This document shows positions 10,295 to 51,109 of a stretch of 64,000 nucleotides of DNA, piece after piece (positions within the stretch are counted from its first letter, which is position 1; the number at the start of each line of letters is the position of its first letter). The DNA lies in assembly GCA_963676395.1 (NCBI GenBank), contig OY781066.1:384001-448000 (forward strand), in the 5' to 3' direction. Position numbers and translations under genes: made by a program. Below the pieces are notes generated by a model. The model did not search any database and was not told the origin of the DNA. It worked only from the letters and a program-made list of their open reading frames with translations. The stretch comes from a bacterium (GTDB lineage: Bacteria; Fidelibacterota; Fidelibacteria; Fidelibacterales; Fidelibacteraceae).

Positions 10295-12427
10295 TCAGTT
10301 TTTTGCATCAAGTCACAACCTAGTGGTGGTGGGCAATATAGTGGGAGTTGTTGTTTTTAGTCAGTTTTTTGCATCAAGTCACAACTACCGTAGGGACACC
10401 CTGTTTTGTTAATGTGTTGTTTTTAGTCAGTTTTTTGCATCAAGTCACAACAGTCAACCTTCTGCTGGTCGTGTCAATATGTTGTTTTTAGTCAGTTTTT
10501 TGCATCAAGTCACAACATGCTTTTGTTTGCTTCGATGGAACTGGAAGTTGTTTTTAGTCAGTTTTTTGCATCAAGTCACAACATAAAAACAGGCACTGTA
10601 AAATTCATAAAAGTTGTTTTTAGTCAGTTTTTTGCATCAAGTCACAACATATTGAATTTAATCGATCGATGATCTCGCGTTGTTTTTAGTCAGTTTTTTG
10701 CATCAAGTCACAACCGATCTCTATCAATCGAAATCAATGCGGAAGTTGTTTTTAGTCAGTTTTTTGCATCAAGTCACAACCCAATACTCTTAATACTAAG
10801 ATAAAAAAAAGTTGTTTTTAGTCAGTTTTTTGCATCAAGTCACAACCTAATGACCTTTATAAGGCATTTTCCGGTAGTTGTTTTTAGTCAGTTTTTTGCA
10901 TCAAGTCACAACACATCGGCCGAGGAGTAGTGCGCATTGGAGTTGTTTTTAGTCAGTTTTTTGCATCAAGTCACAACATATTGCGATAATTCTTTTGACC
11001 TGGCCAAGTTGTTTTTAGTCAGTTTTTTGCATCAAGTCACAACCGTGGCGGTGGTTGCTCTTGCTGTCGTCGCGTTGTTTTTAGTCAGTTTTTTGCATCA
11101 AGTCACAACCTCGATGTTCTTAAATCATTTGTGGAAGTCGTTGTTTTTAGTCAGTTTTTTGCATCAAGTCACAACCATCAGATCGTTAATTGTCATTAGC
11201 TTCATGTTGTTTTTAGTCAGTTTTTTGCATCAAGTCACAACACGAAACCTTGATCAGTTAGAAACAGCTCTGTTGTTTTTAGTCAGTTTTTTGCATCAAG
11301 TCACAACTCAATCTGGTGTTCATCCTTATAGCCATTGGTTGTTTTTAGTCAGTTTTTTGCATCAAGTCACAACAAAGCTTAACGAATTATGTCGGCTACA
11401 TATGTTGTTTTTAGTCAGTTTTTTGCATCAAGTCACAACAGAAAGCTCAACATCCAACATAGAAGAAATGTTGTTTTTAGTCAGTTTTTTGCATCAAGTC
11501 ACAACTAGCAAACGAAATGTCGTAGTTGCTATTAAGTTGTTTTTAGTCAGTTTTTTGCATCAAGTCACAACCGTACCTCGTTTAATACCGTTTATCGTAT
11601 CGTTGTTTTTAGTCAGTTTTTTGCATCAAGTCACAACGAAGAGGGCGAGAATTTAACAACACAGCCAGTTGTTTTTAGTCAGTTTTTTGCATCAAGTCAC
11701 AACCTGTGATCCTGAATGTCAATGGAACAGAAGGTTGTTTTTAGTCAGTTTTTTGCATCAAGTCACAACTAAAATAAAGGAATATAGTTCTTCTATTCGT
11801 TGTTTTTAGTCAGTTTTTTGCATCAAGTCACAACCGGAGTGTTCTTCATCGACTCTGAGAAAAAGTTGTTTTTAGTCAGTTTTTTGCATCAAGTCACAAC
11901 AAATTGCCAGTTATTGCCCTTCCGACATTTGTTGTTTTTAGTCAGTTTTTTGCATCAAGTCACAACATTTCTCAACTTCAAATAGAACTCTGAACTGTTG
12001 TTTTTAGTCAGTTTTTTGCATCAAGTCACAACATAAAATCGTTTTGGATATTTCTTTTTGAGTTGTTTTTAGTCAGTTTTTTGCATCAAGTCACAACCAA
12101 CACAATCTGACCCATCATACTTCAGCGGTTGTTTTTAGTCAGTTTTTTGCATCAAGTCACAACGGGTGACATGTTTCTTGTCAAATTTCACCTGTTGTTT
12201 TTAGTCAGTTTTTTGCATCAAGTCACAACACATCGAATTTAATAAGTCGATGATCTTACGTTGTTTTTAGTCAGTTTTTTGCATCAAGTCACAACATATC
12301 GAGAATCATCAAAAAGAAAGGCCTTGTTGTTTTTAGTCAGTTTTTTGCATCAAGTCACAACCGGAGACAACGCCTGTACTGTCGAGAGTTTGTTGTTTTT
12401 AGTCAGTTTTTTGCATCAAGTCACAAC
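10295..12427 (-). CRISPR. type II-C CRISPR array: 32 identical 36-nt repeats plus 1 truncated trailer repeat, 32 spacers (28 x 30 nt, 4 x 29 nt)
   Basis: Repeat on the minus strand is GTTGTGACTTGATGCAAAAAACTGACTAAAAACAAC; full repeats run from 10350-10385 to 12392-12427, with a degenerate repeat at 10295-10319 marking the trailer. Orientation is supported by the leader promoter and tracrRNA complementarity. Confidence 0.99.
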
Positions 12428-43301: not shown

Positions 43302-43904
43302 ATGAAATTCCTCACCATAAAATCGCCAGCAGAAAGCAAATTCACCGTCAAGGGAAGCAAATTCTTAGGATATGCCTATCCGGTGGAAAATACAGAAGCA
43401 ATCGAAGACATATTGACCGGTATTCGAAAAAAATACTATGATGCTACTCACCATTGTTATGCATGGCAGTTGGGACTTGATAAAAACATTACTTTTCGGT
43501 ATAACGATGACGGCGAACCGTCCGGAACGGCCGGAAAACCTATTTATGGCGCTATACAGCGCTTAAATCTAACACATGTACTCGTAGTGTCCATTCGTTA
43601 CTACGGCGGCACAAAACTCGGCACAGGCGGACTTATCAAGGCCTACGGACAATCCGCAAGTGATACGCTGGAGCTTGCCACGATCAAAACGGTTGAGATC
43701 GGCGACAGACTCTCATTTACATGTTCTTATGAGCAGCATCCCATTATCATGCGTTTGCTTAATCAATATCATCTCATCAATTTTTCTCAAGATTTTACGG
43801 ACAAAGTTATGATTAATATCGAAGTGGATGAAAATGATACGCAGCGCATCCTGGAAGAAGTAAAGAATGCTACGAATGGGATGATTATAGGAGATATTCT
43901 GTAG
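43302..43904 (+). CDS. yigZ: IMPACT family protein YigZ
   Basis: KGSKF, ATHHCYA, DDGEPSGTAGKP, RYYGGTKLGTGGL. Confidence 0.93.
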   Translation: MKFLTIKSPAESKFTVKGSKFLGYAYPVENTEAIEDILTGIRKKYYDATHHCYAWQLGLDKNITFRYNDDGEPSGTAGKPIYGAIQRLNLTHVLVVSIRYYGGTKLGTGGLIKAYGQSASDTLELATIKTVEIGDRLSFTCSYEQHPIIMRLLNQYHLINFSQDFTDKVMINIEVDENDTQRILEEVKNATNGMIIGDIL

Positions 43905-44035
43905 GTAGCATCATTTCGAGGATGTACGGGTGATTCGCAAATTGCCCTTTGGTCTCCTACGGGAGGCTTTCTTCTTTGCCATGGCTATGGCAAGCAGGTG
44001 GGAGCATTTCTTATTTCAAGATCAATTTTAATTTT

Positions 44036-44065
44036 AAAAAGCCACGCAAATGCGTGACTTTTTTT
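44036..44065. terminator. bidirectional terminator at the left end of the island
   Basis: AAAAAGCCACGCA-a-ATGCGTGACTTTTTTT. Confidence 0.75.
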
Positions 44066-44095: not shown

Positions 44096-44515
44096 TTATT
44101 GTGTAACCGTAAAAGTCCCAATTACTTGACCAACAGTATTTTGGGTACACTTTGCAATAACTCCACTAATTTCACCATCCTCATATATAGCACTTTCAAT
44201 ACCCAAGAAATATTGGCCGATATAACCGGCTTCAAGAGTCATATACATATCACCCTGTACAGTGGGAGAATAATACCCACGTGTAATTAATGCATTTTCC
44301 CATTCCCAAACATCAATAGTTCCAGTTATATCCCAGCTATCACCGAATAAGCTTTCTTCATATTCGCCTTCTAATACTAATGTCAAATCACTTGCTTCAC
44401 CATTAATAGTTGCCGTTCCTGTCCAGGTACCGAACAAAGGAAAAGCCGGCTCCAGTGAGCAACCGACAAAAATAATCATAACGAACATTGCCAAATTTAT
44501 TAGAGCTGATTTCAT
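44096..44515 (-). CDS. hypothetical lipoprotein (beta-rich)
   Basis: MKSALINLAMFVMIIFVGC lipobox; GTWTG motif; start trimmed to 44515. Confidence 0.7.
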   Translation of the reverse strand: MKSALINLAMFVMIIFVGCSLEPAFPLFGTWTGTATINGEASDLTLVLEGEYEESLFGDSWDITGTIDVWEWENALITRGYYSPTVQGDMYMTLEAGYIGQYFLGIESAIYEDGEISGVIAKCTQNTVGQVIGTFTVTQ

Positions 44516-44567
44516 TTTTTCCCTTATTCTTTGTATTATTTCTTTTCCAGAACAAATAATAATTAGA

Positions 44568-45344
44568 TTACTCTGTCCCTTTAACAGGAGGTAATCCTTC
44601 TTTCCATCTCTTATTTTCTTTATCAAAGTATAAATCAATGGCTTTATTTGTAATAGGAAACTCGAATTTTGTTTTTTCTAATACGTTTCCAGCAACATCT
44701 GTTTTAGTAGTAATATCAAAAAACGCTACTTTTACATTAATTGACTCTGGTTTAGGCGCTGTGGGAAATATAAGTAAACCACTGTATTCAAATCCGGGTA
44801 GAATTTCTTTATTTAAATCGTTTATGAGAGTATAGTTACGACGATTACTCTCTATTACTCTGGCACCGAAACCTGCGTATGACCAAGAATCATTATTTTC
44901 AATAGATGTAATCCAATCCTTTAATTCATTAATATCACCGATGGCTTTTAAAGGTTCTCTTTCATCTTCAATTAAATAAATCCTGGCATCTTTCATTCTC
45001 AATATATGTTCTGTATTATTTATTATCCTTACTTTGAAAACTGTCATCCCGGCATTACTACGTTCAAACATATAATACCATTGATGACCGTTAAGATCCT
45101 TTGGGAATACAGATGCGGTATATTCATATGCCCCATTGAACAATGAAGGTGATATTTCAAAGTATTCCGGGTAATCATATGTTTCTGCAATTGAAATTGG
45201 GGTTAAATCAATAATAACATTTGATTTTTCAATACTAGGATTATCGTCAATTCTTCTGGTACGAAAAGTATGTGTAGTTGAAAAACAACCAAATAGTAAT
45301 GCCATAAGACTTAAAACTAGACAAAGGTTTACCATCTTTTTCAT
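44568..45344 (-). CDS. hypothetical lipoprotein
   Basis: MKKMVNLCLVLSLMALLFGC lipobox; AGGAG RBS; EILPGFEYSGLLIFP Ig-like strand. Confidence 0.75.
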   Translation of the reverse strand: MKKMVNLCLVLSLMALLFGCFSTTHTFRTRRIDDNPSIEKSNVIIDLTPISIAETYDYPEYFEISPSLFNGAYEYTASVFPKDLNGHQWYYMFERSNAGMTVFKVRIINNTEHILRMKDARIYLIEDEREPLKAIGDINELKDWITSIENNDSWSYAGFGARVIESNRRNYTLINDLNKEILPGFEYSGLLIFPTAPKPESINVKVAFFDITTKTDVAGNVLEKTKFEFPITNKAIDLYFDKENKRWKEGLPPVKGTE

Positions 45345-45504
45345 TTTTTTCTCCTTATTTTTTTATTAACTATATATCTTTTATTTAATCCATGATTATA
45401 ATACTATATTATTTTTGGGTAGGGCACGCTGATATATATCGATGCCACAACATTTTCAAAAATCATTTATCGTAAACATTCCCTCTCATTGCAGACGTGC
45501 TAAT

Positions 45505-47865
45505 CTACTTCATATATACCATCTTCCTCGTCTCAACAAAATCCCCGGCTTTTAGGGTATATATGTATATCCCCGTCGATAAACCGTGTACAGATGGATC
45601 GAATTTTAATTCATAGTGACCGGCATCCAATTCATCTTCCATTGAAAATACTTCTTTTGAATTTAGATCAAATACCTTCAATGTTACGTCTGAATGTTCC
45701 GGAAGATCATAGGATATTGTTGTACTTGGGTTGAAGGGATTGGGATAGTTTTGTGAAAGGTTATATTCACTTGGTATCTTTGTAATTGAAGTACCAATTG
45801 CTTGAATATATAATTTATAATTTGAGCACCAATATTGACTTTGACTTGGCACATTAACTCCAATATAATATTCTCCAATATTTATTCCATTAACATCTTG
45901 AGGTTTAAAGGTTATTGTTTCTGAACCAGAGCCATTTTCCGACAAAGTAACATTATCGTTTCCGATTTTATAATCACTACTATTAATAGTAGAATTTGAG
46001 GATAAATAGTATTCTATTTCTAAGTTTGAAAGCATACCACCAGCTACTTCATTCGTTATAACAGTTATTGTAATCGTTTCATCCATATTTGTGGGATTAT
46101 TATCAGCTGATATTGATGTTATATTAAGCTCTCCATTAACTTGTGTTAAAGTCAATTGGGTGTTGGTAACCCAATATTCTCCTTCATCGGGTATTGTTAT
46201 CCCGATATAGTAATTACCTGCACTTAAACCACTTATATCTTCTGGAACAAACGTAATATCTTCAGTCCCAGATGCATTTGCAGATAAGGTCACCTGATCA
46301 TCACCCAAATAAAAATCTGAAGTAGTTATAACATTATCAGTTGATAAATAGTATTGAATTCTTCTATTCGCTACTGCTACTCCACCTGCTTCTCGTATAC
46401 TAATTGTAATCGTTTCACTTTCATTTAAGGAACAAGGATTCAGAGTGGCTGCAATTCCTGTCAGTTCTAGATCTGTATATATCGGCGATGTAATTGTAAC
46501 AGGATCAGTTCTCCACCATCTATTACCTTCATCGGGAATCATCACACCCACATAATAATCTCCAGTTGTTAAACCAGTAATATTTTCTGGTTTAAAAGCT
46601 ATATTTTCACTTCCCGAGCCATTTGCAGAAAGGGTAACATAATCATTACCAATATAATAATCACTTGTTGTAATGTCCGTATCAGTTGATAAATAATATT
46701 TTATTTCACGATTTGATACTGATTCACCACCAACTTCTCTTACATCTAAAGTAATTGTTTCATTGACATTCATTGGACATGGATTTTGGCTGAAAGATAT
46801 ACCGGGGATTTCAAGATCCGCATATACGGCCGACTCAATATCAAGTGGTGTTGTATAATTCCAAGATGCCAATTGATCAAGTATTCGAATTGTTAACCAG
46901 TATCTACCAGGCGTTAATGAACTTATACTTTCAGGAACGAAAGATAATGATTCTGTTCCTGAACCATAAGCTGAAAGATTAATATAATCTGAACCAATCT
47001 CGTATGTTATTGAATGATTACTATCATTTGTTAAATGATAAGTCATTTTTAAATTTGATACCGATCCACCTTGGATTTCCCTAACGTTAACTGTAATACT
47101 ACATGATTTATTCATTTTACATGGATTGGGATTAACACTTATATGGTAAACTTCGGCTTCAGCAGCATCCTGAATGGTTAATAAATCATTACGCCAATAA
47201 TATTGATTTTCATCAGGAATTATTATTCCGACGTAATAGTCACCTTTTGTCAATCCACTAACACTATTAGGTCTAAAACTTATTGTTTCGGTACCTTGTC
47301 CATATGCAGATAACGAGACATAATCATCACCAATATAATAATCACTGGTTGTAATTGTTGTATTTGTAGATAAATAATACTGTATTTTACGATTAGAGAC
47401 AGAAGAACCTCCCACCTCGTTAACCGTCAGAGTAATTGTTTCAATTTCATTCATCTTACAGGGATCCTTACTCAATGCAATAGCAGAAATTTGGAGATCA
47501 GAAGCAGTCGGAACTAATGAAACTTTACTTTTTTTTTCACTACCCTCATTAATAAATCCGGATTCTACTGAAGTATTTTCTTCTCTTGGAGATAATATTA
47601 TTTCTTTTTTATACACGGTTTTTTCTGGTAGAGAATTTGTCTGCTCAATTTCTTTAGCTATTATTTCTGAAGATTCTGTTTTAGAGTTTTGAGAATTCAG
47701 TGGAAAAACATTAATTTCAAATATATTTTGTTCACTTTCTTTTTCCGTTTCGATTTTAGGATTCTTTGAAATCTGAGCAGACTCACCACCCATAAGTATT
47801 GTCACGGATAAAAGTATTGAAAATAGAACAAATTTCTTCAGTTTAACACTTTTTACAGTTTTCAT
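45505..47865 (-). CDS. secreted protein with five CARDB/Ig-like repeats and a T9SS type A sorting domain
   Basis: Signal peptide; five ~113-aa repeats (DL.I..I...NP...NETIT..V.E.GG...YYLST..TIT.SDY.IG.D.V.L...G.YY.G); C-terminal LSQNYPNPFNPST...GIYIY.L; start trimmed to 47865. Confidence 0.85.
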   Translation of the reverse strand: MKTVKSVKLKKFVLFSILLSVTILMGGESAQISKNPKIETEKESEQNIFEINVFPLNSQNSKTESSEIIAKEIEQTNSLPEKTVYKKEIILSPREENTSVESGFINEGSEKKSKVSLVPTASDLQISAIALSKDPCKMNEIETITLTVNEVGGSSVSNRKIQYYLSTNTTITTSDYYIGDDYVSLSAYGQGTETISFRPNSVSGLTKGDYYVGIIIPDENQYYWRNDLLTIQDAAEAEVYHISVNPNPCKMNKSCSITVNVREIQGGSVSNLKMTYHLTNDSNHSITYEIGSDYINLSAYGSGTESLSFVPESISSLTPGRYWLTIRILDQLASWNYTTPLDIESAVYADLEIPGISFSQNPCPMNVNETITLDVREVGGESVSNREIKYYLSTDTDITTSDYYIGNDYVTLSANGSGSENIAFKPENITGLTTGDYYVGVMIPDEGNRWWRTDPVTITSPIYTDLELTGIAATLNPCSLNESETITISIREAGGVAVANRRIQYYLSTDNVITTSDFYLGDDQVTLSANASGTEDITFVPEDISGLSAGNYYIGITIPDEGEYWVTNTQLTLTQVNGELNITSISADNNPTNMDETITITVITNEVAGGMLSNLEIEYYLSSNSTINSSDYKIGNDNVTLSENGSGSETITFKPQDVNGINIGEYYIGVNVPSQSQYWCSNYKLYIQAIGTSITKIPSEYNLSQNYPNPFNPSTTISYDLPEHSDVTLKVFDLNSKEVFSMEDELDAGHYELKFDPSVHGLSTGIYIYTLKAGDFVETRKMVYMK

Positions 47866-47917
47866 TTTCTTCTTCTCCTTATTTGTAATTAATTGCATTA
47901 TCTGTACTTTTTTACAT

Positions 47918-48181
47918 TTATTCCTTGACGGTTACGCGTAACCGCTGTAACTTTTCTCCGTATTGTTTAGCAAGATCTTCGAAATAGGATAGAACCCGGG
48001 CAGAATTGTCTTTGCGTAAAATCACGCGATTGACGATAGTCTTTTTAACCCCCAACGCACGGGCGACATCGGTCTGTTTTAATCCTGCTACGATCAGCAG
48101 TTCTTTCATATACAAGGTATCGACTTCCTGATTTCCACTTAGAATGGGTGAATCTGGCGTATTCGCAGTTCGAGAACTCAT
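47918..48181 (-). CDS. small Cro/Ner-like helix-turn-helix protein
   Basis: GLKQTDVARALGVKKTIVNRVI HTH; divergent from the CI-like gene. Confidence 0.7.
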   Translation of the reverse strand: MSSRTANTPDSPILSGNQEVDTLYMKELLIVAGLKQTDVARALGVKKTIVNRVILRKDNSARVLSYFEDLAKQYGEKLQRLRVTVKE

Positions 48182-48308
48182 AAAACCTCTAGTTTTTCAA
48201 ATTCCGGGTCAGTCTATACTAATTTCTTTATTGAGAGCAGGTAATGATGTAATAAATCGTTTAATTATGTTTAAATGTCTGTCCCTGCCTTATTGGCGCG
48301 TACGATAA

Positions 48309-48374
48309 TGCACTATTTTACACGTCTGTATTATATTATGTATTATCATACACTTTGTCAAGTACTATTATACA
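48309..48374 (-). promoter_or_regulatory. promoter overlapped by three operator-like palindromes
   Basis: Minus-strand TTGACA(48356-48361)-17-TAATAT(48333-48338); TGTA-N6-TACA-like sites at 48309-48322, 48339-48352 and 48361-48374. Confidence 0.7.
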
Positions 48375-48407
48375 TTATTTCTTTTTTATTTAATAAAAGG
48401 TACACTT

Positions 48408-49040
48408 ATGAGAATCGCAGATAGATTAAAGATGATCAGAAAAGACCTTGGACTTTCTCAGGAACGTTTCGCCAATGAGCTTGGTATTCATCTGCGTTCT
48501 TATGTCTCTTACGAGAAAGGCGATCGCGCCGTCCCTCAAAAGGTCATGCTTGATCTGATGCATATGGGGTATAATATCCATTGGTTATTAAATGGCTCCG
48601 GTAGCATGAAATTATTGCATACCATAAGTAATGAAACTCATGAATATCCAAGCAAGAATGATATACCGATCTTAAAGAATTTAAGCGCTGTTTTTAAAAA
48701 TAGCATTCTCCCGGACGTAAGCCTGTCCCCTAACACCCTTCCTCGTCCTGAAAACAATCAAGATCCTTTTACATATGCCGTCCAATTAAAATCACTTGGG
48801 GACAAGGGAATGTCTCCGGCATTTCATCCAGATGAATATCTAATTGTTTCACCTCTTGAAACCGTTCTGAATAATGATAAGGCTATCATTAAACTTACAA
48901 ATGGTCGTATTGTTTTTAGGGTCGTTCAGTTCAAAGATTATACAATAGATCTTATACCGGCAAATATTAGCTGTAAAATGGAATCAATACCTTCAGAAGA
49001 ATTGGTTTTTGCTCATAAAGTTGTTTCTACCACAAAGTAG
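48408..49040 (+). CDS. CI/LexA-like repressor (XRE HTH plus degenerate S24 domain)
   Basis: RLKMIRKDLGLSQERFANELGI...YEKG HTH, NIHWLLNGSG, S24-like C-terminal domain (IPIL..., GDKGMSP, HKVV). Confidence 0.88.
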   Translation: MRIADRLKMIRKDLGLSQERFANELGIHLRSYVSYEKGDRAVPQKVMLDLMHMGYNIHWLLNGSGSMKLLHTISNETHEYPSKNDIPILKNLSAVFKNSILPDVSLSPNTLPRPENNQDPFTYAVQLKSLGDKGMSPAFHPDEYLIVSPLETVLNNDKAIIKLTNGRIVFRVVQFKDYTIDLIPANISCKMESIPSEELVFAHKVVSTTK

Positions 49041-49174: not shown

Positions 49175-50944
49175 TTAATCTTCAACTTTCAATTGTATTG
49201 AGAGGTCATCCAACTGTTTTTGATTCACACCCGAGGGAGCTCCATCCATCGGAGACTGTGCCGTTGTGGTCTTGGGAAAAGCAATAACGTCTCGAATGGA
49301 ATCTTCGCCGGTCAGGACCATGATCAAGCGGTCTAAACCAAAGGCGATCCCACCATGAGGTGGTGCACCGTATTCAAAGGCACCCAATAAGAATCCGAAT
49401 TTTTCCTGAGCTTCTTCATCGTCAATACCCAGAGCTTTGAACATTCTTTGCTGCAAATCCTTTTGATAGATACGAATGGAGCCTCCACCAATCTCATAAC
49501 CATTCAAAGCCATATCATATGCACGGGCTTTCACGGCTAGAGGATCACTTTCAAGTTTATCGATATCCTCTAGTTTGGGTGAAGTAAAAGGATGGTGACG
49601 AGCAACCAGTCGGCCGCTTTCTTCATCTTTTTCAAATAGAGGGAAATCAGTTACCCAAACAGCCTTATGTTCGTTTTTCTTGATGAGACCAAATTCTTTT
49701 GCTAATCTTGTTCTTACGGCACCCAAAACAATTAATGACGTTTCCCAAGCATCTGCCATGAATAAAATTAGATCACCGGCCTTGGCTTCTGTTTTCTCCA
49801 ATAGAAGTTTTGCAGCGTCTTCATTTATAAATTTTGAGATACCACCTTGTAAACCTTCTTCGTTAACTTTCACAAAAGCCAAACCTTTGGCACCGTATTT
49901 CTTGGCAAATTCGGTGAGTTCATCAATTTTCTTGCGAGAAAAATCTGCAGCACCTGTTACAGGCAATGCACGGATTACACCTCCATTGTCCATAGCAGAA
50001 TGGAAAACCGAAAAATCTGTCGCTCTAGCGAAGTCTTCCACATTCTTGATCTCCATGTCAAAGCGCACATCGGGTTTATCCGACCCGTAGCGTTCCATAG
50101 CATCATGAAAGGTAATTCTTGCTAGCGGCGTGGGGATATCAACGCCGAGCGTTTCCTTAAATACGGTTGAGACCATATTTTCCATGAGTGTTTGAATTTC
50201 CAGTTCATCTACAAAAGACATTTCGCAATCGATCTGGGTAAACTCAGGTTGACGATCCGCACGTAAATCTTCATCCCTGAAACATTTCACGATCTGAAAG
50301 TAGCGATCATACCCCGCAACCATCAGAAGTTGCTTATAGGTCTGAGGAGACTGAGGCAACGCATAGAATTTGTGCTTATTTACACGTGAAGGCACAAGAA
50401 AATCACGAGCACCTTCTGGAGTAGATTTCATTAGCACAGGTGTTTCAACTTCCATAAAGTCATTTTGGGTTAAATAATTACGTACGATCTGAGATGCCTT
50501 ATGGCGCATGAACATATTTTTCTTAAGTTCTTCAGTACGAAGATCAAGATATCGATATTTTAAACGAAGATCTTCTGAACCGGTTTCGCGTTTTGTGATC
50601 TCAAAAGGAGTTGGTATAGCTTTATTTAACAATTCAAAATCGATTGCTTCAACTTCAATCTCACCACTGGGCAATTTTTTATTAACATTTTCTTCGGGGC
50701 GAGCCACAACAGTACCCAAAACAGCGATCACATCTTCGTTATTAAGATGCTTTACCACATCAAGAATTTCTGCTGAAAGATCGTTATTAAAACGAACCTG
50801 AACCAGACCGTAACGGTCTCTGAGGTCGACAAAAAATATTCCACCAAGATCACGACGGGTATTCACCCAGCCATTGATCTTTACAACATTTCCAATATGA
50901 GATTTGTTTAATTCACCACAGCGATGGTCTCGTTTTATACGCAT
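49175..50944 (-). CDS. aspS: aspartate--tRNA ligase
   Basis: FVDLRDRYG, STPEGARDF, LPQSPQ, FRDEDLRADRQPEFTQID, HHPFT, PPHGGIAFGLDR; start trimmed to 50944. Confidence 0.98.
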   Translation of the reverse strand: MRIKRDHRCGELNKSHIGNVVKINGWVNTRRDLGGIFFVDLRDRYGLVQVRFNNDLSAEILDVVKHLNNEDVIAVLGTVVARPEENVNKKLPSGEIEVEAIDFELLNKAIPTPFEITKRETGSEDLRLKYRYLDLRTEELKKNMFMRHKASQIVRNYLTQNDFMEVETPVLMKSTPEGARDFLVPSRVNKHKFYALPQSPQTYKQLLMVAGYDRYFQIVKCFRDEDLRADRQPEFTQIDCEMSFVDELEIQTLMENMVSTVFKETLGVDIPTPLARITFHDAMERYGSDKPDVRFDMEIKNVEDFARATDFSVFHSAMDNGGVIRALPVTGAADFSRKKIDELTEFAKKYGAKGLAFVKVNEEGLQGGISKFINEDAAKLLLEKTEAKAGDLILFMADAWETSLIVLGAVRTRLAKEFGLIKKNEHKAVWVTDFPLFEKDEESGRLVARHHPFTSPKLEDIDKLESDPLAVKARAYDMALNGYEIGGGSIRIYQKDLQQRMFKALGIDDEEAQEKFGFLLGAFEYGAPPHGGIAFGLDRLIMVLTGEDSIRDVIAFPKTTTAQSPMDGAPSGVNQKQLDDLSIQLKVED

Positions 50945-51109
50945 AATGCTCCCTTTAATTTCGGGCATAAATTACACGAAAACAGGCATAATTCAAATGG
51001 TTTCTTTAATCATATGTGTAGGAACGCTCAACTTGTCGAGTCCGGAATTACCCAAACTGGATTATATCCAATCTTAACATTTTCAAATTAATGTTATTTC
51101 AAGTAATCA

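Follow-up and report, generated by a model that had tools for sequence, protein, structure and literature searches.

A phage-derived CI/Cro pair kept without its phage between yigZ and aspS in one clade of uncultured Neomarinimicrobiota

Why would a bacterium keep the immunity region of a temperate phage and none of the phage? The question arises from a stretch of 64,000 nucleotides (the window) in a Fidelibacteraceae genome, contig OY781066.1 of assembly GCA_963676395.1, positions 384,001 to 448,000. This genome is called G000 here; other G numbers are relatives in its genus, and L numbers are fetched loci. The G000 assembly is one contig of 2.34 Mb, 95% complete, with a single copy of each regulator gene. 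Five genes lie between yigZ (43302–43904, PF01205) and aspS (49175–50968, PF00152): a CI-like repressor of 210 aa (48408–49040, + strand), a divergent Cro-like XRE helix-turn-helix (HTH) protein of 87 aa (47918–48181, − strand), an Ig-repeat protein, and two lipoproteins. By sequence comparison, the regulatory pair derives from temperate phages that infect this genus: it is their lysis-lysogeny switch, and a single host clade carries it as a fixed feature of the yigZ–aspS interval. What is new is that the trigger and the activator were lost while Cro and the control DNA stayed, a change that can be traced by comparison with phages of the same genus. One branch of these uncultured Neomarinimicrobiota bacteria has kept an intact viral on/off switch and lost the virus, and it likely reuses the switch to control exchangeable surface-protein genes, possibly as an inherited on/off memory. 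A literature search whose coverage mostly excluded subscription papers and left supplements aside found no description of this locus or of an uncleavable orphan CI/Cro pair.

Both proteins were compared with known phage regulators. The CI-like protein matches HTH_3 at 32 bits, above the cut-off, and Peptidase_S24 weakly, at 22.6 bits, just below it. Its recognition helix (HLRSY, residue 28 on) belongs to the HTH, its top PHROG match is the repressor phrog_4 (E 3e-16), and its predicted S24 fold resembles LexA, lambda CI (3bdn), and 186 CI. The Cro-like protein was assigned from sequence and predicted structure; its HTH matches by sequence are weak, and its model is an XRE/Cro-type HTH with a middling best Z of 6.2 to the lambda CI N-domain. 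These matches and folds bear out the first-pass annotation, which had read the divergent genes as a phage immunity layout. Its further statement, that the yigZ–aspS interval is free of integrase, transposase, replication, and structural genes, held in gene, Pfam, and PHROG comparisons.

The same pair was found in prophages of two relatives (G021 and G005) and on IMG/VR contigs, in the order cI-cro-cII. There, cII begins 47 or 68 nt after cro and encodes a CP76-family protein (PF06892) that is 67–84% identical among phages, with an invariant core in the three that were aligned. The G021/G005 prophage also carries SSB-like, replication-like, and terminase-like genes, with names read from their sequences. 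When its G021 open reading frames were compared with G000, matches were confined to cI, cro, the integrase remnants, SSB, one exonuclease domain, and part of the final gene. The cII gene is absent from G000 and from all five other carriers searched, the latter search having been run without a positive-control genome. Three broken integrase pieces of the same phage family persist in the G000 genome (33356–33661, 2003812–2004093, and 2013323–2013703) beside tRNA-Met/Val and tRNA-Cys/Leu, and the carrier lineage therefore met these phages repeatedly. Searches of G000 with four structural families, PF03237, PF04860, PF05065, and PF04984 (terminase, portal, capsid, and sheath), gave zero matches, and controls gave matches; a control cassette for a gene transfer agent, a PBSX-like particle, or a tailocin was rejected on these four families. 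An excisionase role was also considered for the Cro-like protein; its model is closest to XRE HTHs, with Z scores in the middle range, and in the phage another small HTH gene is found beyond cII.

Where the pair occurs was determined in 21 genus relatives, 11 of which have a match to the CI-like repressor. In nine of these the repressor adjoins aspS and cro faces yigZ (two of the nine are split across contigs, and G013 has two aspS-linked copies of the repressor); the other two are the prophages of G021 and G005. The yigZ–aspS site holds neither gene in eight genomes, with gaps of 66–159 nt in six and of 0.4 and 1.4 kb in two, and could not be assessed in four. Eleven metagenome loci were also recovered, nine host-type (eight with aspS on the contig) and two representing one tRNA-Leu integrase element. 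The carriers group as a single clade in trees of the flanking genes (support 1.0) and of the unlinked gyrB (0.99 for nucleotides at codon positions 1+2, 0.57 for protein; G013 has no gyrB), where trees were built with FastTree and clade claims rest on branch supports. Over 14 pairs, dN/dS was 0.014–0.255 for cro and, where dS was unsaturated, 0.04–0.22 for cI, and dS of both genes was mostly similar to that of aspS. Third-position GC is ordinary for the regulators (93rd and 49th percentiles) and low for the three genes beyond cro (2nd, 4th, and 10th). The cI/cro pair is under purifying selection and is not a decaying prophage. Synteny across yigZ and aspS had been proposed as a check, and the intact regulators, vertical inheritance, dN/dS of 0.01–0.26, and conserved promoters and operators agree with the earlier view of a domesticated switch.

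The integrase element (L075:5827–8249; also L074) is integrated at tRNA-Cys/Leu and carries a family integrase and a host-type cro (83% to that of the window), with no cI, cro promoter, or operators. Beyond this cro lie a gene with an FRG domain and another that is methylase-like, and its Cro nests among host copies in the Cro tree.

How the host repressors differ from those of phages was determined using 46 CI proteins from two homologue searches. These fall into two groups, 14 phage-type and 32 host-type, with genomic context checked for the fetched loci rather than for each protein identifier. Positions of the cleavage residues were assigned from the S24 fold and from motifs seen when the phage-type proteins are aligned, because sequence searches of solved structures were uninformative and a profile comparison with UmuD was weak. 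Ala-Gly, GDSM, and Lys are all kept in 14/14 phage-type proteins. Ala-Gly is found in none of the 32 host-type proteins, all of which have a deletion at that site; the catalytic Ser has become Gly in 6 of 32, and Lys has become Arg in 16 of the 30 that are full-length. All three are gone from the window CI, where Ala-Gly is replaced, the region is 4 residues shorter, Ser is Gly134, and Lys is Arg171. Host CI descends from cleavable S24 repressors and lost the site after domestication. With self-cleavage lost and the activator CII gone, the switch cannot flip in lambda fashion. Mean CI identity is alike in the phage-type and host-type groups (63% and 62%), while the recognition helix has 10 types in 13 phage-type proteins and a single type in all 32 host-type proteins. 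Among nine genomes, mean CI identity is 75% in the N-domain, 46% in the linker, and 69% in the C-domain. Cro is 74–90% identical among host copies and 56–68% between host and phage copies; its mean identity over the nine genomes is 86%, compared with 87% for AspS, 75% for YigZ, and 66% for CI.

The control DNA has been kept along with the proteins. A predicted cro promoter (48333–48361, − strand, TTGACA-17-TAATAT) shares its −35 and spacing with 14/14 host copies and its −35 with 4/4 phages. Of three operator-like palindromes, O1 (48360–48375) abuts the −35, O2 (48338–48353) lies within the promoter spacer, and O3 (48308–48323) sits just past the predicted cro transcription start. A promoter of TTGACA-17-TAWWAT type and the three palindromes (consensus RTGYAC-N4-GTRCAY) occur at fixed spacing in all 14 host copies, with one O1 off register. 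At the O1 and O2 positions of four phages, the palindromes vary in sequence along with the CI helix type, which suggests that these are CI operators. All four phages also have a constant ACCCG-N9-CGGG palindrome just past the cro promoter, at the position of host O3 (L029 7804–7900, L060 7756–7850, and two others), a candidate Cro site or 5' RNA hairpin.

A second cluster of conserved elements lies at the far end of cro. An antisense promoter-like element (47925–47953, + strand, TTGACG-17-TAACTT) is found inside the cro 3' end, directed toward cI, and is the predicted equivalent of pE/pRE. It occurs in the same register in 14/14 host copies and 4/4 phages; the pattern was derived from these same sequences and has 10 occurrences in the G000 genome. 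Palindrome O4 (47902–47917) starts immediately beyond the cro stop codon and ends 7 nt before the antisense −35, and a weaker palindrome, O5 (47883–47898), lies 19 nt beyond it. A palindrome ending 7–8 nt before the antisense −35 is likewise in register in 14/14 host copies and 4/4 phages. Using a matrix trained on O1–O3, with O4 kept out of training, O4 scores at least 7 in 14 of 15 copies, compared with 0.3% of 1,899 other stop codons (null window of 42 nt, test window of up to 52 nt). Synonymous codons beneath the antisense promoter are frozen, cro K86 being AAG in 11/11 copies (26% genome-wide) and L81 being TTA in 11/11, counts that leave out one mis-anchored row; mid-gene cro Leu codons, by contrast, take 4–6 forms. 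The host thus seems to have retained an establishment promoter despite losing the establishing protein.

The slot that cII fills in phages holds other genes in the host. In G000 it is occupied by a 786-aa secreted protein (45505–47865, − strand) with five CARDB-like Ig repeats of 112–115 aa and a type IX secretion system (T9SS) tail (PF18962, 30.2 bits, cut-off 27), followed by lipoproteins of 258 aa (44568–45344, − strand) and 139 aa (44096–44515, − strand), both with lipobox cysteines and no Pfam family. The repeats, the tail, and the two lipoproteins were correctly described in the first-pass annotation; its CARDB assignment has no direct match (PF07705) in the window protein and is present on 21 of 22 homologues. 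The gene layout also stood, with two starts revised: that of the Ig gene to 47865, the most likely position (786 aa, as in the database gene call; ribosome site 47872–47881), and that of the second lipoprotein to 44515. The Ig gene begins 52 nt after the cro stop, at the phage cII position. A bidirectional terminator-like hairpin (44040–44059) closes the cro-side unit, and no terminator was found between cro and this hairpin, a soft negative as the terminator script missed hairpins seen by eye. Given the cII slot and the lack of an earlier terminator, the Ig gene and both lipoproteins are likely to be co-transcribed with cro. A nearly identical hairpin sits ~70–86 nt after cro in G017 and G013, which have no cargo there, suggesting that the G000 cargo was inserted within the cro unit; the G000 hairpin occurs at one other place in that genome.

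This cargo is recent and genome-specific. The Ig repeats and protein were found in none of the 21 genus relatives, and the 258-aa lipoprotein has a homologue in one (G002), at another locus. Swappable cargo is a property of the site as a whole, and the expectation that the same pair would be found beside other genes was confirmed by other envelope genes after cro or cI in relatives. A signal-peptide gene with a strong ribosome site begins at +47 to +52 in the cro slot of 6/15 copies; in five relatives this slot holds a lipoprotein of an unnamed family, then small membrane proteins where the contig continues. The slot after cI holds a lipoprotein of 167–177 aa in 6/16 copies and an AbiE toxin-antitoxin pair in one, a metagenome copy (L065:1349–2970). 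Cargo is present on at least one side in 12/15 copies. The cro-slot lipoprotein family (L028:9249–10061, L072:8312–9133, L048:4436–5509) is variable and has a glycine-rich, hydrophobic C-terminal end, no Pfam family, and Atlas look-alikes in Bacteroidota; our guess is that its cassette is toxin-immunity-like.

What such a locus might do is best approached, with middling confidence, as a closed, damage-blind two-state circuit reused as a platform for exchangeable envelope genes behind cro or cI. CI dimers would bind O1 and O2 over the strong cro promoter, and O3, turning cro and cargo off. CI may also bind O4 and O5, ~400 nt away; the resulting loop would span cro and set the antisense promoter, in the manner of 186 CI at FR. 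Because DNA damage could not open the switch, changes of state would be rare and would come from noise or a CI-binding protein. In switched cells, Cro would repress cI and the cro unit would stay on, expressing in G000 the Ig-repeat protein and two lipoproteins, and a return to the CI state would come from the antisense promoter. Cells would gain from this a heritable diversity of surfaces. We infer binding, co-transcription, and bistability from sequence alone. With the trigger and activator discarded, with Cro, operators, and antisense promoter kept, and with 14 cleavable phage-type repressors for comparison, this circuit of ~1.2 kb (control DNA included) is a natural test of CI/Cro as host epigenetic memory.

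Several observations weigh against the two-state circuit. A conserved maintenance promoter for cI could not be convincingly identified, and either CI or Cro may bind each of the putative operator palindromes. Cro is conserved beyond the needs of a purely local regulator. A 160-nt gap before the 258-aa lipoprotein contains a TATAAT that could be its own promoter. The cro slot is empty in 9/15 copies, and 3/15 (G019, G003, and G007) have no cargo on either side and an intact switch, so cargo alone cannot explain retention. The earlier proposal that the switch drives the Ig protein and two lipoproteins is therefore retained as likely co-transcription, and not as the reason the switch is kept. The site also takes insertions without the switch (1.4 kb in G010, 0.4 kb in G018), and pieces of REP-type tyrosine transposases are present there in several genomes. 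Finally, the recA tree splits the carriers, and in three pairs dS of cro falls far below that of the adjacent genes, a hint of recombination or constraint; the two together indicate that recombination has occurred. The recA genes of G004, G013, G017, and G010 (L097, L099, L102, and L103) group together, contrary to the gyrB tree, suggesting that recA was replaced between lineages.

Copies without cargo, and a Cro conserved to an extreme degree, allow for other functions: a role in trans, an anti-phage role, or sensing of phage CII. For the last of these, the CII (or an antirepressor) of an infecting or induced family phage would flip the uncleavable host switch, leaving an inherited mark that DNA damage cannot erase. 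We consider this improbable, as we do its fuller form, an infection recorder with an outside chance of being correct, in which the host deleted its own cII and damage trigger and kept a CII-responsive promoter, such that the CII of an invading or waking phage would heritably alter the surface proteins displayed. If true, this would be a new way to sense and remember infection. The shared register of antisense promoter and upstream palindrome in phages and hosts, the conservation of CII among phages, its absence from the carriers searched, and the integrase remnants are in its favor, and the phage antisense-side sites, unlike O1 and O2, do not track the CI helix type. Antirepressors are known that act on non-cleavable repressors other than their cognate ones (PMC3121763; this and later comparisons follow the available portions of the cited papers). 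The host O4, however, fits the O1–O3 consensus, making the host's own CI or Cro a simpler explanation, and the carrier cII search lacked its positive-control genome. Since host O4 resembles both that consensus and the phage sites at the equivalent position, the sequence is compatible with a self-wired circuit and with one that listens to a phage. Host immunity is also unlikely; here, uncleavable CI, or Cro, would repress family phages at their operators or through mixed uninducible oligomers formed by the shared C-terminal domain, with the cargo as passenger. Loss of the cleavage site in all copies, the identity still found in the C-terminal domain, and retention of cargo-less copies are compatible with this. 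So is the family terminase in 2/12 non-carriers and 0/10 carriers, although that difference lacks significance (p 0.48) and prophages are lost from fragmented assemblies. Superinfection immunity of the plain kind is a poor fit because the frozen host helix occurs in 0/13 phage-type repressors. Furthermore, no phage O1 or O2 contains a site recognized by the host matrix, frozen specificity would be a poor defence against 10 immunity types, and immunity does not require a conserved cro.

A small probability is likewise given to Cro (or CI) having become a host regulator in trans, with the local switch only setting its level. Cro equals AspS in conservation, copies of the pair that have no cargo are maintained, and in E. 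coli some host operons are controlled by regulators from cryptic prophages (PMC11879457; PMC13492144). Against this, matrix matches outside the locus were not above column-permuted controls (12 versus 15.7 at scores of at least 14; 1 versus 2.0 in intergenic regions), a comparison limited to the O-type motif, and no paired sites were found elsewhere in G000. A genome-wide O-motif regulon was rejected for want of any excess over permuted matrices; the best outside match (genome 1460075) lies within a longer inverted repeat. Least probable by far, and largely refuted, is a LexA substitute, an FddR-like damage regulator in a family where the LexA DNA-binding domain exceeds the cut-off in 1 of 33 genomes. 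The presence of recA and umuDC and one site scoring 10.1 upstream of G000 recA would suit this role. Yet Ala-Gly is missing from every host-type protein, Ser and Lys are each lost from some and both from that of G000, the recA site scores 4.5 or less in all nine other carriers, and non-carriers also have no LexA. A substitute for SOS was rejected on the missing cleavage motifs and on the recA upstream regions of 21 genomes, in which the site is not conserved. The umuD gene of G000 has no upstream region of its own.

As a two-state circuit, the locus most resembles the cI-apl-cII region of coliphage 186, in which CI binding at FR inhibits pE and induction is by antirepressor (PMC7708051). Both have a divergent repressor and Cro-like gene and an antisense promoter at the cro end with palindromes upstream (predicted only, in our case), and phage relatives of the G000 pair have a CP76-family CII right after cro, as in 186. 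They differ in that no phage, cII, or antirepressor gene was found at the G000 locus, the cII slot is taken by envelope genes, the Cro model is of XRE HTH type, and CI derives from cleavable S24 repressors. Lambda CI/Cro shares the HTH and S24-fold repressor, the divergent small HTH, operators over a strong promoter, and a pRE-like antisense promoter. Unlike lambda, the G000 switch has no Ala-Gly or intact Ser-Lys dyad, no cII, N, or replication genes, and no phage lytic genes in cis, and it is chromosomal and vertically inherited.

Domesticated phage repressors are already known, including FddR of Francisella (PMC13148647), the non-canonical LexA of Bacteroidetes (PMC8565304), and Rac. The first two, like the G000 repressor, are phage-type HTH_3 and S24 proteins co-opted in LexA-less lineages as self-contained divergent units with a palindromic operator. 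Both are damage-responsive, with Ala-Gly and Ser-Lys intact, and in the portions available were retained for that trigger; the G000-type switch discarded trigger and activator, has a Cro partner, and has no conserved recA site. The RacR-YdaS-YdaT region of E. coli Rac is also a retained cryptic immunity region, with a reverse promoter inside the cro-like ydaS that drives the repressor (PMC11879457). Rac keeps the CII-like YdaT and a large prophage remnant, whereas the G000-type unit has no cII or adjacent phage genes and is fixed across ten species-level genomes. Gifsy repressors also do not self-cleave and can be switched off in trans by antirepressors, but are short proteins of active prophages, while G000 CI is a full-length S24-fold protein that lost its site post-domestication (PMC3121763).

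Other features of the region were recorded. The cro leader contains conserved complementary arms, GGCAGG and CCTGC (48235–48291, − strand), with weak covariation and no Rfam match. The leader is long in the window (48190–48300) and in relatives, most of which have two crossing complementary segments, a possible pseudoknot near the cro ribosome site; G000 keeps the first only. The two crossing helices pair in 92% of cells of the leader alignment. A riboswitch was rejected, as no Rfam family reached its gathering score and covariation was not above shuffles (53/500 reach it). A CRISPR array of 32 spacers is located at 10295–12427 of the window, and 0/32 match any fetched phage locus.

In each of the three genera searched, LexA is all but missing, with umuDC and recA present (G000 genome 968827–969174). 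Nearly all 21 genus genomes have a palindrome of TGTGA-N6-TCA type ~105–125 nt upstream of recA (L088–L108), which we take to be CRP/FNR-like. In G015 and G004, part of the yigZ 3' end is duplicated in the interval between yigZ and cro (L047:2373–2528; L028:7827–7916, the latter flanking an assembly gap), a trace of insertion events. REP-like palindromes follow yigZ in the window (43928–43968), where relatives have IS200-like (Y1) tyrosine transposase genes or pieces (L025:4432–4998, L018:2490–3056), and these Y1 transposases are a possible engine of cargo turnover.

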